DNA of 20,000 nucleotides from an uncultured virus (IMG/VR IMGVR_UViG_3300031867_000039) (taxonomy: Duplodnaviria > Heunggongvirae > Uroviricota > Caudoviricetes > Schitoviridae): the IMG/VR virus record IMGVR_UViG_3300031867_000039, one strand, 5' to 3'. Below the pieces are notes generated by a model that worked only from the letters and a program-made list of their open reading frames with translations, was not told where the DNA came from and did no database searches. Below are positions 3,906 to 9,181 of the stretch, in pieces (within the stretch, counting starts at the first letter, position 1; every line of letters begins with the position of its first letter). Position numbers and translations under genes: made by a program.

Positions 3906-4283
3906 TTAATCTACTCTTTTTACAAGGTATGACTGTATCAGAGCTGTGATCTTATCATTACCTAAAGTAAATCTAACATATCCACAAGGTAATGGTTCAC
4001 CATACAATTCGGTTTCAGCTAAAGCCAACAAGATACATAAATAATCTTTAACAGTACAACCACGAACAGTAAAGGTAATCTTAGTAAAATCACCTGCAGT
4101 CAGTTCTTCTAAGTGTTTCTGTTTAAGTTTATATCTATGAATTTCTTTAGGTTCTTCTTCCTTAACTTTTTCTTTTGGTTCAGGACCTTTACGAAGTTCC
4201 TCTAACTCAGCTTTTAAATTGCTAATCTCTTTATTCATTGAATCCAAGATTTTGCTTAATTGAATTTTTGTAGATCTATCCAC
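3906..4283 (-). CDS. Hypothetical protein with N-terminal coiled coil
   Basis: 125-aa ORF whose start overlaps the stop of the polymerase C-terminal part. Confidence 0.7.
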   Translation of the reverse strand: MDRSTKIQLSKILDSMNKEISNLKAELEELRKGPEPKEKVKEEEPKEIHRYKLKQKHLEELTAGDFTKITFTVRGCTVKDYLCILLALAETELYGEPLPCGYVRFTLGNDKITALIQSYLVKRVD

Positions 4284-4998
4284 GATTTTTCTTCTCCAAC
4301 TGTAATAACTTAATTAAATCATCTTTACTAATATCATTAGGTATAGTTACTGGATGTGCCCAGTCAGGATAAAATAAATCAAGTTCACCACCTAAATGTA
4401 CTTTATCATGTGCTATATCACTAGCATCCTGCCACTTCATAGCTTTACCTAAAATCTTATTTAAATAACATATAGCATCAAGATTATCTCGCACTATATA
4501 ATATGAAGCATCATGTATTTGTGCTACTGGTAATATGTCATACTTATAAGGGCTATTCCATACTTGCTCCATTACTTCACATACTGCTCTACAATTAAGT
4601 AATCCCCATGATTGTCCTAATGCATTACCTGCTGTTTTAGCATCTTTAGCTGCTCTAGCAGATGTCTTATTAGTATTAAGGATACTCTCTTTAAGAACAG
4701 GTGTACGTAATCTTAAACCAAAAGCACAAGTAACATATCCATCTTTACATGCTCCATCAAGACGAGTATTAACATACTCATCCGCTACCTTATATAATTC
4801 ATGATATGTATTATATATTCGTTTAGCTTCTTCCTCCGTAGCTATACCACACTCTTCCATAAGAGCTTTAAATGTACCACCGTAAGTAAGTGCAAATGTA
4901 GCACTCTTACTGTCCTGTCTTAGATTTTTATGTTTTTGTTTTATAGAATTTATTATACCTATATGGTATTCTTGTTGTGATATTTCTCTAATCTTCAT
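4276..4998 (-). CDS. Family A DNA polymerase, C-terminal part (motifs B and C)
   Basis: RQDSKSATFALTYGG (motif B), GNALGQS, and VAQIHDA (motif C). Confidence 0.9.
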   Translation of the reverse strand: MKIREISQQEYHIGIINSIKQKHKNLRQDSKSATFALTYGGTFKALMEECGIATEEEAKRIYNTYHELYKVADEYVNTRLDGACKDGYVTCAFGLRLRTPVLKESILNTNKTSARAAKDAKTAGNALGQSWGLLNCRAVCEVMEQVWNSPYKYDILPVAQIHDASYYIVRDNLDAICYLNKILGKAMKWQDASDIAHDKVHLGGELDLFYPDWAHPVTIPNDISKDDLIKLLQLEKKNRG

Positions 4999-5105
4999 AA
5001 TAGTATCAATAAAATTAATATTGCTAACCAGTATTTCGGTATTGTTATAGTATGTTTATTATCACAACTTTTAATGACATTGTTAAGTTCATTCTTAAAT
5101 GTCAT
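4995..5105 (-). CDS. 36-aa peptide with hydrophobic C-terminus (below the ORF-track cutoff)
   Basis: MTFKNELNNVIKSCDNKHTITIPKYWLAILILLILL*. ATGA overlaps at both ends: with the stop of 5102..5296 and with the start of the polymerase C-part. Confidence 0.65.
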   Translation of the reverse strand: MTFKNELNNVIKSCDNKHTITIPKYWLAILILLILL

Positions 5106-5296: not shown

Positions 5297-5474
5297 GATA
5301 ATATAAATCCCTGTAAAAATCTTCTAATTCTTCCATATTATAGATATCTCTATGCATTTGACCTGAAGTAATAAAGACTACAGATTTAAATCTAAATTCA
5401 CTATAGTCTTTAATATCAGCTTTTATTTTTAACTTAATCTGACGCATTTGCAATTTCCTCATTAACGTCTGCAA
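5289..5474 (-). CDS. Hypothetical protein
   Basis: 61-aa ORF overlapping both neighbours. The start may be at a downstream Met. Confidence 0.6.
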   Translation of the reverse strand: MQTLMRKLQMRQIKLKIKADIKDYSEFRFKSVVFITSGQMHRDIYNMEELEDFYRDLYYHV

Positions 5475-5946
5475 AACATTTATCTAAAGTATCTTTAAGT
5501 ACTGGAAATCTCTTATATAAACCATCAGTTGAAGTACAACTACGTAAAGCCACTTCTAAGCATTCTTGAAACTTATCATAAAGCTCTTTCCTTTTAGCAT
5601 ATAACGATTCAGTCTTAGCTGCATAACTAAAATACTCTTCAGCCTCTTTAGGTGCTAAATCTTTAAAACCAAATCTAACACCAAAATCACTATATACATG
5701 ATAGTAACTACCATTTATACTAATAGAATATCCATCTGGTTTAAGCTGCAATACTTCAGTTAAGAATTGTTCATGTCCTTTATATTTATTCTTAATTAAT
5801 ATATTTAAAGTATTACAAAATTCTTCTTCTGTTACACCAAAGTAATCATGAGGTGCTTTAATAATAGCATCCTTTAATAACTTATCTCTCATATACTCTT
5901 TAAGTGTATATCTGATATTACTAATTAATTCTTTAGTCAAACGCAT
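5434..5946 (-). CDS. Hypothetical protein
   Basis: 170 aa; start overlaps the polymerase N-part stop. No HNH, GIY-YIG or LAGLIDADG motif seen. Confidence 0.7.
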   Translation of the reverse strand: MRLTKELISNIRYTLKEYMRDKLLKDAIIKAPHDYFGVTEEEFCNTLNILIKNKYKGHEQFLTEVLQLKPDGYSISINGSYYHVYSDFGVRFGFKDLAPKEAEEYFSYAAKTESLYAKRKELYDKFQECLEVALRSCTSTDGLYKRFPVLKDTLDKCFADVNEEIANASD

Positions 5947-7946
5947 AATTTTTTATACTCCTCATCATATTCAGATAAGTACTTAACATTACCCTCATCA
6001 TCAATAACTTCATAGAACTTACCACCTTTATTAAGATACTCTAACTTCTCTGTAATATCTGGCATAAGATGTTTATAATAACTGTACGCTCTTAGACAAT
6101 GACCATCAAAAGCGTCAAATTCATAATTCTTAGAAACGCTGAAAGCGTCAGAAGAAACATCTTTAAAGGTCTGATAAAGACTATCACCTGTATAAGTAAC
6201 ACCATTATATTCAATAGTATCATCACTACCTATATACTTGGTTTCACCATTAATAACTACCTTATAGTTAATACCTGGTATATAAACCTTTAACTTTTCT
6301 GGATCTTTAGTAAGTAATGCAGATATATGATCTTCTAATGAAGAAAAATCTGAACCACAAAATACAAATCCATCAGGTGCTTTAAAACACTTCTTAAATG
6401 GTTTAGCCCATACAGTACCAGTAGCAGGTAAATTCTGTAAGTTAGGACTACTACTACTTAATCTACCTGATACAGTACCACCTATATTAAAATTACCATA
6501 TAATCTATTATTAACAGATGATTCCATAGCAGGTATGAAGTTATTCATAATCTGCATAGCACAAGATAGTTCTATTAATTTATCCATTAATACTTTCTGA
6601 TCTTCATTACAATAACTTCTTAAATCCATAATTACATCTTTCTCTGTAGATGGTTGTTTGGATTCAGTATATTTAATAATAGGTAGTTTCATTACTGTAT
6701 AGAGTAATACACGTAATTGAACAGAACTTCTTAGATTAATCTTAAAATCAATAGATGTCTTCTTCTTGGTTTTTAATTTAGCATTAACTTTATCTAATGC
6801 CTCTTTATATAGGATTCTTTCTGCATCTTTTACTTCATCAAATAACAATAAAGTATTATGAGCATCATCAATAGCTATTTGTAGTTTCTCTTTTAATTTA
6901 GCTACTTCATTCATATCCATATATAAACCATTAAGTTCTGTATGGGTTAATACCTTTTGAGTAGGTAATAACAACTCACGATATAGTTTCTCCTGCTTAT
7001 CTTGAACCATAATAGGATAATATTTATTATATACATACCATGTAGCACATACATCTTTTAGGTTATATTCTAATTCAGTCTTAGTATCTACTTTGGATAT
7101 ATCACCTATATCTTCTAATGCATATTTACCTGTATATTCAAATGCTAAATCCTTTAATTTATATGATGGTTTACCTGTAGAATTAAGTGCTAGATATGCA
7201 ATTATCTTAGTATCATCTATGTTCTTATACATAGTGTGTAAACCATACTGTAAACCTACTTGGTCATTTATATCTTTCATAAATAACTCATATATAAGTA
7301 CTTTCACATCAAATGAGGCATTATGGAATATTAATGTACCTTTATAGGTTTCAAAGAATTGTTTTAATTTCTTCTTATCTTTTACTGTAAATGCAATACC
7401 ACCATGCATATCAGTACCAAATGCAATAGAAACCAAACCACAATTATGGAATTTTAATCCATTAGTTTCTATATCTACTGTCAATTTATCATAAGATAAT
7501 AAATCAAATAGATGTTCATCTGTATAATCTGCATGGGTAATAATATTATTAACTTTAGTATTAGCATTATTTAAACAAGCTATACTTGTTTTTAACTTAT
7601 TCATTAGTGATGGGTCATACTTAAATGCTAGATAATTTAATCCAAGAATAACAGTAAATCTACTATCTAATTTACAAGGGTATCTCTTACCAAAGCAATA
7701 TTCAGTAGATTTCTCACCTGTTAATACCTTAAAATATCCTGCATCACATACAAATAATTCATCAATACCTTGATTAGCTAATTGAGGTAATAGATTCTCT
7801 ATATATGTTTTAGCTTCCTTTACGTTAAAGTTCTTACTTGAATAATAGAGTCCCTGACACATACAGTTAGGAACACCATTATTAAAATAATAATACTGTA
7901 TATTCTCCATATACAATAAACTATTTTTAATTAACAAGCATAACAT
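5937..7946 (-). CDS. Family A DNA polymerase, N-terminal part (extra N-terminal domain, 3'-5' exonuclease, polymerase through motif A)
   Basis: Exo I VDIET, Exo II FHNASFD, Exo III YNLKD, TVSGRLSSSSPNLQNLP, motif A GSDFSSLE, and DGHCLRA. Stops before motif B. Confidence 0.9.
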   Translation of the reverse strand: MLCLLIKNSLLYMENIQYYYFNNGVPNCMCQGLYYSSKNFNVKEAKTYIENLLPQLANQGIDELFVCDAGYFKVLTGEKSTEYCFGKRYPCKLDSRFTVILGLNYLAFKYDPSLMNKLKTSIACLNNANTKVNNIITHADYTDEHLFDLLSYDKLTVDIETNGLKFHNCGLVSIAFGTDMHGGIAFTVKDKKKLKQFFETYKGTLIFHNASFDVKVLIYELFMKDINDQVGLQYGLHTMYKNIDDTKIIAYLALNSTGKPSYKLKDLAFEYTGKYALEDIGDISKVDTKTELEYNLKDVCATWYVYNKYYPIMVQDKQEKLYRELLLPTQKVLTHTELNGLYMDMNEVAKLKEKLQIAIDDAHNTLLLFDEVKDAERILYKEALDKVNAKLKTKKKTSIDFKINLRSSVQLRVLLYTVMKLPIIKYTESKQPSTEKDVIMDLRSYCNEDQKVLMDKLIELSCAMQIMNNFIPAMESSVNNRLYGNFNIGGTVSGRLSSSSPNLQNLPATGTVWAKPFKKCFKAPDGFVFCGSDFSSLEDHISALLTKDPEKLKVYIPGINYKVVINGETKYIGSDDTIEYNGVTYTGDSLYQTFKDVSSDAFSVSKNYEFDAFDGHCLRAYSYYKHLMPDITEKLEYLNKGGKFYEVIDDEGNVKYLSEYDEEYKKLCV

Positions 7947-9181
7947 TAGCGTAATCTCCCATAATATAAATATATCTTCTCTTTAGCTCTGGATGCAGCT
8001 ACATAGAACAATCTACTTCTAAGTGCCGGATCTACTATTGGTTTACCATATTTAGTTGTAGCGTATAAATCCTCTATATTGATAAATACCTTATCATATG
8101 TAGAACCTTGAGCAGAATATATAGTAGCTGACTGACAGAACCTTAATTTAAGAACATTCTCACAAAAACATGCATATTCATAAAAATCATGTTTCTTAGC
8201 ACATTTCTTATATAACTCTTTAACTACTGATTCATATTGATCTGGATTATAGAAAGTCTTATATCTACCACTAGCATCTGTAAATGTTACATAACACATA
8301 CCACTTTCAGGTGCATTCTGAATAGTAGATATAGTCTTAATTTCCTCTACATATGTTTTTCTACTCATAGGTGTAGATGGTAATGCACTTTTACAAACAA
8401 CTAAATCACCCTCTTGTATATAGTTAGGTTGGTTCTTTAAGCTACGTAATGCACCATTCATTAAATCCACACATTTATTAGTATGACCCAAGATACGATC
8501 ATTCTCTCCCATAGATAAGAATACATCAGCAATATCTTCATTACGTACTATCTGTATATTCTCAGATGGTTGAATACTCATAATGAAATTATCAATGGTA
8601 GGACAATCAATATGATCTCTACAATCCATAATTAACTGCTTAACATCTTCATGATTAAATCTAATTAATTCAGTTAATTCTACCTGTGGGATATCTGTAT
8701 TAAAGATATTAAAAGTACTATTTACAGGCGGTAGTTGGTTCTTATCACCTACATAAATAATCTTATTCTTCTTCTCTAAAATATCTGACTGTATAAATTC
8801 ATATAGATCATCACCTATCATAGAACATTCATCAATAAAGAATATATTACCTGAGATATTAGGAATACCTTGTCTACGTAATACATCATTACCTGTAGAT
8901 GTATCTTTCTGTGGTTTAATCATAAGAATACTATGAATAGTCCTACCATTAATCAATCTACTAGCTTTATTAGTAGTAGCTGTATTAACTATCTTCTTAT
9001 ATGGGATTTCAAATCCCATTTTATTAAGTGCATCTATTTCTTTTAGTATTCCTGTTAAATCCTGAAGTAAATAAGACTTACCAGTTCCAGGTGAACCAGT
9101 AAGTATTATCTCTTTCTGATGTGGATCTAGTATGAAATTAGCTAGTAGTTCTCTAGCATTTTTTTGTTGCTCTGTCAGCAT
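7946..9181 (-). CDS. SF1B (Dda/RecD-like) DNA helicase
   Basis: GSPGTGKS, TIHS, IDECSM, GDKNQLPPV, AQGSTYD and YVAASRAK motifs. Confidence 0.9.
   Translation of the reverse strand: MLTEQQKNARELLANFILDPHQKEIILTGSPGTGKSYLLQDLTGILKEIDALNKMGFEIPYKKIVNTATTNKASRLINGRTIHSILMIKPQKDTSTGNDVLRRQGIPNISGNIFFIDECSMIGDDLYEFIQSDILEKKNKIIYVGDKNQLPPVNSTFNIFNTDIPQVELTELIRFNHEDVKQLIMDCRDHIDCPTIDNFIMSIQPSENIQIVRNEDIADVFLSMGENDRILGHTNKCVDLMNGALRSLKNQPNYIQEGDLVVCKSALPSTPMSRKTYVEEIKTISTIQNAPESGMCYVTFTDASGRYKTFYNPDQYESVVKELYKKCAKKHDFYEYACFCENVLKLRFCQSATIYSAQGSTYDKVFINIEDLYATTKYGKPIVDPALRSRLFYVAASRAKEKIYLYYGRLR

Follow-up and report, generated by a model that had tools for sequence, protein, structure and literature searches.

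The DNA considered here, referred to as the window, is a stretch of 20,000 nucleotides (nt) from an uncultured virus of the Schitoviridae (IMG/VR record IMGVR_UViG_3300031867_000039). The gene in question is its family A DNA polymerase gene, which is present as two minus-strand open reading frames (ORFs), an N piece of 669 amino acids (aa) and a C piece of 240 aa. This gene is probably what remains of two separate invasions by homing-endonuclease elements, one of which has healed and one of which still splits the gene. The view builds on what was observed in the window and its relatives, i.e. the architecture of the gene, the homologies of the segments added to it and the link of these segments to endonuclease genes. 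The segments are a 58-residue insert between KVY and DGHC in the N piece, below called module 1, a 38-residue tail that follows MPDI at the end of the N piece, and a head that precedes INSI at the start of the C piece.

The enzyme is a family A polymerase of the N4-like (Schitoviridae) type. The N piece covers positions 9-179 and the C piece positions 199-360 of the Pfam DNA_pol_A profile, and the motifs DFSSLED, RQDSKxxTFALTYG and QIHDA are all found across the two. The best tblastn matches of the N piece are Schitoviridae polymerases with 35-41% identity, and megablast of 4 kb of the region against phage records gave no DNA-level match. Within the fingers, the interruption separates motif A (DFSSLED) from motif B (RQDSKxxTFALTYG). 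Five of five reference phages and most related loci have an uninterrupted gene at this site, and one essential gene is thus carried as two ORFs in the window.

Module 1 and the tail, found at residues 556-613 (6108..6281) and 632-669 as the original prediction on this DNA had placed them, are not ordinary parts of unsplit orthologues. That prediction held that only a few residues separate KVY from DGHC in N4-type polymerases, which is correct: the spacing is 4 residues (TDGY or LDGY) both in all five unsplit N4-like reference polymerases and in every unsplit polymerase among the related loci that were mapped (86 loci; 80 related viral contigs), compared with 58 in the window, where FDAF replaces TDGY. 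From MPDI to INSI the unsplit polymerases have 6-7 residues, with longer spacings in L058 (9), L009 (14), L044 (16) and L038 (17), while the window has the 38-aa tail and a stop, and 15 residues are added before INSI at the start of its C piece relative to the five reference polymerases. Stops and restarts also recur within these modules, as had been proposed for inspection: the MPDI site is broken in 23 of the 86 loci, and KVY/DGH in 5 of the 86 and in 19 phage records. Other break sites in these genes are at reference positions of about 489, 554 (with no added residues), 593 and 659.

The phage records broken at KVY/DGH are that of Klebsiella phage Pylas and 18 further coliphage records, and 12 of these 19 carry an annotated HNH or homing-endonuclease gene that overlaps or adjoins the match to the KVY-site tail. 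The N piece of Pylas ends in MGHTVYEVNINGTIHHIRDDATITFDGKTYTGEEFYDAFGSL, and this end gives a gap-free alignment with the initial 42 residues of module 1; the same arrangement was seen in four metagenomic loci. A second group of loci carries long tails at the MPDI site, for example EMAKDSEECYTAKVGGTDIWFHETEQIEYLGKTYTGKQLYELLTNQGI. A hidden Markov model (HMM) built from these MPDI-site long tails alone and run against 16,282 ORFs matched the tails of Pylas (E 4.2e-6), module 1 (1e-5), L019 (6.7e-5), L007 (8.6e-5) and L027 (2.1e-4), with nothing beyond KVY-site tails and module 1 under E 1. The reverse search, with KVY-site tails, also recovered the MPDI-site long tails, and hhalign placed the two families together with a probability of 97.9% and E 6e-13. 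At the level of sequence profiles it is therefore well supported that one tail module occurs at two break sites, KVY and MPDI, and that module 1 belongs to it.

The tails of the window's own, shorter type are likewise a conserved feature. A homologue search with residues 480-669 of the N piece gave 2085 proteins, and the best 120 of these 2085 were all N pieces of 569-659 aa, ending 38-47 residues past MPDI in a helix, the pattern KEGKVYKVTxDDGSVEYLNE and a short helix. Against phage records, tblastn of the 38-aa tail gave only chance-level matches (E 7 or worse). Heads were found in all eight C pieces of the window's break type, with the pattern M-x-I-x-E-[IV]-x(5)-[VI]-x-[VI]-INSI. Judging by the pattern of substitutions, the tails are coding and under purifying selection, because third-position changes exceed those at the first and second positions in all three families (codon positions 1/2/3: short tails 399/254/548, long tails 432/379/663, KVY-site tails 104/92/161) and synonymous changes predominate, as between the tails of L023 and L054 with nine synonymous and four non-synonymous differences.

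The gaps between polymerase pieces often hold endonuclease genes. In a Pfam run on 29 gap ORFs, HNH_3 was found in 11, mostly together with NUMOD4. NUMOD4 and/or HNH_3 genes were present in four of the four KVY-site gaps that contain a gene; at the MPDI site of the long type, HNH genes were found in L010, L023 and L075 (all three HNH-type gaps scanned), and the gap gene of L054 matches that of L023 with 394 bits. No gene lies between the polymerase pieces in L062, L064, L065, L040 and L007, and in L064 and L065 only about 50 nt separate the stop from the restart. In L022 and L034 the MPDI-site gap holds other genes (see table), and a former endonuclease slot there appears to have turned into an accessory-gene site. 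On a tree of 83 of 87 polymerases (reference positions 100-480; the four without a single ORF across 120-470 were excluded), read without support values, carriers of KVY-site, MPDI-long and variant breaks are scattered among unsplit lineages, and the window's short type forms two clades. This fits a repeated horizontal spread of the endonuclease-bearing forms, the window-type splits being old and vertically inherited.

Interruptions with HNH genes could also be self-splicing group I introns, as in SPO1-like polymerase genes, the tails then being chance translations of intron sequence. HNH genes of the I-HmuI type are classically carried by introns of family A polymerase genes in phages, as Goodrich-Blair and Shub are said to have described in 1994, Pylas was deposited as an intron with a joined coding sequence, and tail- and head-free HNH inserts at reference position 554 of the same genes do look like introns. 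We nevertheless find this explanation hardly credible for the breaks studied here. Substitutions in the tails follow the pattern of coding sequence, the 174 nt of module 1 are in frame and uninterrupted, an intron in L064 or L065 would have only about 50 nt, and Pylas leaves only about 105 nt before and about 40 nt after the HNH ORF for an intron core. A search of the window and eight loci at Rfam gathering thresholds found tRNAs only and no intron, a negative of little weight, given that the search also overlooked the probable introns at site 554.

A second alternative is that the modules are decayed split inteins, Hint fragments that no longer splice or do so unconventionally, with the homing endonuclease as the freed endonuclease of the intein. 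A minimal Hint domain needs about 130 aa, more than the 53 aa of tail and head together in the window or the roughly 72 aa of the long form. There is no junction nucleophile (T, E, R or Q follows MPDI, and I, M or T follows KVY); the Cys present in six of seven long tails lies 8-10 residues in and is missing from KVY-site and most short tails. Neither is there a terminal His-Asn before Ser, Thr or Cys, as the heads end in ...HIGI, ...VEVI or ...NLKR directly at the native INSI. Pfam on 12 tails gave nothing meaningful even at E 10, and no Hint or intein family. A PDB sequence-profile search with the tail alignment found nothing below E 0.3, its second-best match being the Aes123 PolB1 split intein (9hth_A, E 0.37). 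The latter match, the true split intein of L027 in the same gene (CVAGDTQV... and ...GIVNHN/SSS) and the order of tail, free-standing endonuclease gene and head, which is the fractured-gene layout (PMC2677866), speak for such an origin; on balance we regard it as unlikely.

To follow the distribution of the module, 12 tails were combined into a profile and run against a library of 1.84 billion representative proteins. This library-wide search gave 89 matches at E <= 0.001, 24 of them at E <= 1e-10, and in 80 of the 89 the module ended within 10 residues of the C-terminus. The other nine were six multi-stretch matches in unrelated repeat proteins and three tails with longer ends. Of the 49 matches among the 89 that were put through Pfam, 22 contained DNA_pol_A and 21, all short pieces, fell in no family; families other than DNA_pol_A turned up in the six repeat proteins alone. 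The module is therefore, at the sensitivity reached here, restricted to polymerases of family A. The original prediction had pictured a mobile, non-splicing module that lets genes be split, and the HNH genes between tail and head and the scattered carriers agree with this for the polymerase, while the library-wide search found no wider use of it.

Module 1 differs from the other members in that it is unbroken. Its last 14 residues (DAFSVSKNYEFDAF/DGH) resemble, by eye and over a stretch too short for a statistic, the end of the L007 head (DAFFIKKAGKTEGY/DGH), and the suggestion that the first segment is a contiguous or re-fused copy is borne out in that its tail-like and head-like parts match KVY-site pieces. 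The simplest reading of the sequence is that in module 1 a tail runs directly into the terminal part of a head, with neither endonuclease nor stop, and that the module may have arisen by secondary fusion after a recent invasion, because P0002 (60% identity, the closest relative below near-identity) has the tail but no module 1, and no second unbroken copy was found among the 86 loci or the 89 library matches. The reverse order would make the module an ancestral accessory domain whose loop was chosen by endonucleases as a landing site, with module 1 as the original unbroken state. Module 1 is indeed intact and well folded in the model described below, and the direction could have been fusion or fission. 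The same absence of other unbroken copies, the lack of module 1 in P0002, the scattering of carriers beside unsplit sisters with a plain 4-residue linker, and the presence of the same module at a second, different site make an ancestral domain very improbable, and the events probably ran from split to fused. Contiguous inserts of 14-17 residues at MPDI in the unsplit L009, L038 and L044, which read like a tail start plus a head end, look like further and more complete re-fusions; on the tree, these loci neighbour lineages that are split.

Module 1 with 10-residue flanks was modelled with AlphaFold2 from a 12-row alignment from which the heads were excluded, as MAFFT misplaced them on YDG. The model contains two beta-hairpins, a helix and a fifth strand contributed by the head-like FSVSKNY, with predicted local distance difference test (pLDDT) values of 87-91 in the core, falling from 85 to 55 across the FSVSKNY strand. 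Foldseek with this model gave no match at E <= 0.001. A complex prediction for the tail (N piece 626-669) with the head (C piece 1-30), each chain having its own alignment and controls not being included, reached interaction scores (ipSAE) of 0.29 and 0.27 compared with a mark of 0.32. What bears on the function of the extensions is their conservation and the single-chain model of the fused copy. Tail and head may pair into one small domain that aids assembly without splicing, and the extensions could be required for assembly or activity of the enzyme.

The original prediction rested on a pattern shared by module 1 and the 38-aa tail, which did not survive direct comparison: the best local BLOSUM62 score of the two segments was 25, reached by 1638 of 5000 shuffles. 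At the profile level their likeness is only suggestive. The short-tail family aligned to the KVY-site family in the register first proposed (hhalign P 0.0034, probability 9.5%), and, again in that register, to a pooled profile of KVY-site, MPDI-long, variant and T4 tails with P 0.00028 and a probability of 41%. Of the two hairpins of the long tail, the short tail matches the first and has no counterpart of the second, and both types occupy exactly the same break site. Their heads, IREISVAEHNVRR/INS in L027 and IREISQQEYHIGI/INS in the window, gave a profile P of 0.0017 with the native INSI removed. One short-tail locus, L021, holds an HNH gene in its gap, the N-terminal part of which resembles, by eye, the C-terminal part of the long-type endonucleases.

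Several results weigh against the history of two invasions or against the role given to the end-pieces. HMMER found no cross-matches between the short tail and the long-tail family, and short and MPDI-long tails gave only P 0.027 in hhalign. The descent of the window's short tail from an endonuclease element rests on weaker evidence, because significant similarity between short and long tails is missing; the basis left for it is the shared site, the similar heads and the HNH gene of L021. On this view, which goes beyond the sequence, the short tail would be derived from the long tail. No nuclease family was found by Pfam or PHROG in the four gap ORFs of the window. The endonucleases group by site, and those of the KVY and MPDI sites (66-83 bits) are no closer to each other than to enzymes of tail-less sites, so a single cassette hopping between KVY and MPDI is not demonstrated. 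By BLAST, the T4-type endonuclease MobA has no similarity to the polymerase-site endonucleases (E > 0.2). The halves of a family A polymerase share a large native interface and may need no help to assemble. According to the parts of the two reports that deal with the extensions, the tails of the split ribonucleotide reductase NrdA of phage Aeh1 are not required for heterodimer formation (PMC3045599), and the insertion of the T4 topoisomerase, when fused, has little effect on activity (PMC11461880). Because the Aeh1 pieces bind without tails and the T4 insertion barely affects activity, the word clasp may overstate the role of the extensions.

These last points, together with the native palm/fingers interface expected from the family A fold, could also mean that tail and head are functionless by-products, the one of read-through to the first stop and the other of a start at the first usable codon. 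The short scars of L009, L038 and L044 would in addition suggest that most of the module is dispensable once a gene is re-fused. We think this quite improbable. The tails are conserved, mostly through synonymous changes, among polymerases that share no more than 35-45% identity, one and the same 40-aa pattern is retained at two sites, and every split piece found retains the module, which is C-terminal in the 80 library matches mentioned above. The Aeh1 tails, which derive from the element, are moreover essential for activity according to the relevant sections of Crona et al. (2011; PMC3045599).

The two invasions may have proceeded as follows. An element would insert in a conserved stretch of the gene, leaving an in-frame tail on the upstream piece and a head on the downstream piece, with an endonuclease gene between. 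The first would have occurred at KVY/DGH, and the endonuclease and the middle of the element would later have been deleted in frame, giving module 1 as a fused tail-plus-head insert of 58 aa that may form a small knob of beta-sheet and helix on the fingers. The second, presumably old and fixed, would have occurred at MPDI/INSI, in a fingertip loop between motifs A and B, where the gene remains split and both the tail (38 aa) and the head (15 aa) would be shortened forms, and where four small, probably translationally coupled cargo ORFs would have replaced the endonuclease. Tail and head would pair across the break and help assembly without splicing, as may be the case in T4 gp39/gp60 and in Aeh1 NrdA-a/NrdA-b.

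Table. Features of the split polymerase gene in the window, and genes found in gaps of related loci
Feature	Position	Strand	Basis
N piece, family A DNA polymerase (3'-5' exonuclease, thumb, palm motif A, module 1, tail)	5937..7946	-	Pfam DNA_pol_A_exo1 136-308, DNA_pol_A 382-554; phrog_17
Motif A GSDFSSLED, aa 531-539	6330..6356	-	Conserved alignment columns G531, D533, L537, E538, D539
Module 1, tail-like part IPGINY...YQTFKDV, aa 556-597	6156..6281	-	Homologous to C-terminal tails at KVY and MPDI break sites
Module 1, head-like part SSDAFSVSKNYEFDAF, aa 598-613	6108..6155	-	Matches end of N-terminal heads of KVY-site downstream pieces
Short-type tail after MPDI, 38 aa, aa 632-669	5940..6053	-	Conserved in split homologues, not in unsplit orthologues
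Stop codon of N piece	5937..5939	-	
Gap ORF, 170 aa, start overlapping N-piece stop	5434..5946	-	No Pfam or PHROG match
Gap ORF, 61 aa	5289..5474	-	No Pfam or PHROG family
Gap ORF, 64 aa	5102..5296	-	phrog_8293 (1.3e-16), phrog_14626 (1.1e-15); phage families without known function
Gap ORF, 36 aa, stop overlapping C-piece ATG (ATGA)	4995..5105	-	
Head of C piece, 15 aa, MKIREISQQEYHIGI, ahead of native INSI	4954..4998	-	Conserved in 8/8 C pieces of same break type
C piece, 240 aa: fingers O-helix, motif B, palm motif C	4276..4998	-	Pfam DNA_pol_A 199-360; phrog_2573
Motif B in C piece, RQDSKSATFALTYGG, aa 27-41	4876..4920	-	
Gaps of window-type loci: helical ORF, about 145 aa			No known family
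MPDI-site gap of L022: Tad2-like (anti-Thoeris, anti-defence) gene	L022:4588-5232		E 1.1e-21
MPDI-site gap of L034: Nmad5 gene	L034:7803-8507		E 1e-18

The four gap ORFs of the window are co-directional and overlap their neighbours at the ends. The largest is unrelated, by BLAST and hhalign, to the ORF family of about 145 aa in the gaps of the relatives. A language-model lead for this ORF as Nmad5 (0.86, with 176-183 shared features) was dropped, as BLASTP against the L034 Nmad5 protein and Pfam gave no confirmation.

The split relatives showed a number of further features. In L023 (8519-8530), L054, L075 and L010, a stop-first insert of 5 nt lies between the Thr and Tyr codons of PTFALT/Y(A/Q)GT in motif B, reading ACG TAGCG TAT in L023 and L054, ACT TAGCT TAT in L075 and ACG TAACA TAT in L010. 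In these loci the downstream frame has no ATG, GTG or TTG ahead of YAGT, and because it has no start there the ribosome would have to bypass the 5 nt or make a -1 shift. In each case, the triplet ahead of TAT resembles the take-off codon (ACG/GCG, ACT/GCT, ACG/ACA). Each of the four loci whose MPDI site holds an HNH gene has the insert, and all the long-type loci without an endonuclease there (L022, L027, L034, L035 and L066) lack it. Its position, 47 codons from the start of the downstream piece, resembles that of the T4 gene 60 bypass. In L021 (9940-9960), with its HNH gene in the gap, a 6-nt TAACTA insert places an in-frame stop between GP and TFALTY, where readthrough or bypass is possible.

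The breaks at other positions are of different kinds. At site 554, L008, L014, L021 and L044 are interrupted after GRLSSSNP without added residues; the gaps of L008, L014 and L044 measure about 820-830 nt and contain a long ORF, confirmed as HNH in L008 and L044 (those scanned), and the gap of L021 is 256 nt with no ORF. These breaks are probably group I introns. Site 489 (L010, L015) has its own tails, ...LITKYEITDDEIT and ...LMKEYDITEEELNE, and site 593 (L021, L031) its own pair, ...SLNNRRAK and LSEIGLTTLSEHLVEDH..., all unlike the module studied here. The polymerase of L027 consists of four pieces, separated by a true split intein at GRL/SSS (7600-8200; N part CVAGDTQVMTEDG..., C part GNGIVNHN before SSS), a KVY-site break with an HNH gene and an MPDI-site break. 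In a MAFFT alignment, IIYDGKSYTGAEFY of the tail was also matched to the native GYDGHSLRAFAYF that comes after the KVY-site head, and one could speculate that the tail perhaps started out by duplication of the stretch just past the insertion point and has since diverged.

A wider scheme can be put forward tentatively, and we are inclined to doubt it. The tails and heads of the KVY and MPDI sites, the short tail and head of the window and the extensions of T4 gp39/gp60 might all represent a single clasp of ancient origin, portable, made of two parts and perhaps half of a Hint fold, which different HNH lineages carry between genes and sites so that essential genes can be cut without killing the phage. 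The MPDI cassette with its endonuclease would also bring the stop-first insert of 5-6 nt in motif B, which the ribosome would skip as in a miniature T4 gene 60 bypass, and which could protect a carrier against the endonuclease that it encodes.

The usual way for a selfish endonuclease gene to spare its host gene is residence in an intron or an intein. Leaving the protein as two chains with matching end-pieces is a third way, which has been tested in Aeh1 NrdA and described in T4 topoisomerase. Here it would be met in the main replicative polymerase of a large group of N4-like phages, at two sites and with one recognisable tail module. Every stage of a life cycle is visible side by side: gaps with an endonuclease, gaps with cargo instead (in one relative an anti-defence gene), empty gaps, short scars and, in the window, the re-fused module. 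The series provides natural material for testing the role of the end-pieces, and the peptide pair might serve as split-protein tags. In annotation, such polymerase genes should be taken neither for pseudogenes nor for genes with introns.

The principle of element-derived tails on split phage enzymes is known for Aeh1 NrdA and for T4 gp39/gp60 from the relevant parts of the reports on them (PMC3045599; bioRxiv 10.1101/2022.08.31.505936; PMC11461880). No earlier description of these polymerase tails was found in the literature searched, subscription journals and supplements lying outside the search. The group I introns of the SPO1/SP82 polymerase genes share with the present case the host gene family and the endonuclease type (NUMOD4/HNH_3), but no intron was detected here, and the flanks are translated and conserved as protein. 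The fractured genes of Dassa et al. (2009; PMC2677866) have the same order as here, an upstream piece with a C-terminal addition, an endonuclease gene, and an N-terminal addition with the downstream piece, and the polymerase gene of the relative L027 itself contains a true split intein. The modules studied here differ in that they have no splicing residues and about half the size, and the product is expected as two chains.

The Aeh1 nrdA-a/mobE/nrdA-b arrangement is similar in that, in the parts of the report concerned, a free-standing endonuclease fragments an essential gene and the C- and N-terminal tails derive from the element; a general alternative to RNA or protein splicing was proposed there (PMC3045599). 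The enzyme and endonuclease are different, the likeness is drawn from descriptions and not from sequences, and the Aeh1 tails, as described in those parts, act on higher-order assembly and not on the binding of one piece to the other (PMC3045599).

The T4 39/mobA/60 region is the other close parallel. The passages on the MobA element describe tails and heads added by it, overlapping out-of-frame ORFs, loss of the endonuclease with the tails kept, and secondary fusion, in parallel to MobE in nrdA; there, MobA elements are exclusive to Topo2L genes according to Manning and Atkins (bioRxiv 10.1101/2022.08.31.505936). In the T4 topoisomerase structures (8yo3, 8yo4), a 70-residue insertion formed by the gp39 C-terminus and the gp60 N-terminus lies outside the TOPRIM domain and is called an 'assembly bracket' in the part of the report dealing with it (PMC11461880). 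The present case differs from T4 in that the host gene encodes a family A polymerase and not a topoisomerase, the endonucleases are of the NUMOD4 and HNH_3 type (I-HmuI-like) without BLAST similarity to MobA, the polymerase heads have no detectable similarity to the T4 head, two insertion sites occur in one gene, and the window itself has neither endonuclease nor bypass. The likenesses are that an HNH element splits an essential replication enzyme, with a tail of about 44 aa upstream, a head downstream and ORFs overlapping out of frame, and that later stages occur in which the endonuclease is gone and the tails are kept, or secondary fusion has taken place. The gp39 tail family of six phages also aligns to the polymerase tails without gaps in the core. 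In hhalign, the T4-family tail profile matched the KVY-site family with a modest score (probability 78.6%, P 1.7e-5) and the window's short tail with P 0.0011; the pooled tail HMM matched gp39 at residues 477-508 with E 1.7e-4, for this single target, and the predicted model of module 1 superposes on gp39 477-516 and the start of gp60. With no topoisomerases among the matches of the library-wide tail profile search at E <= 0.001, this likeness to T4 suggests that more distant relatives of the module lie below the search threshold.

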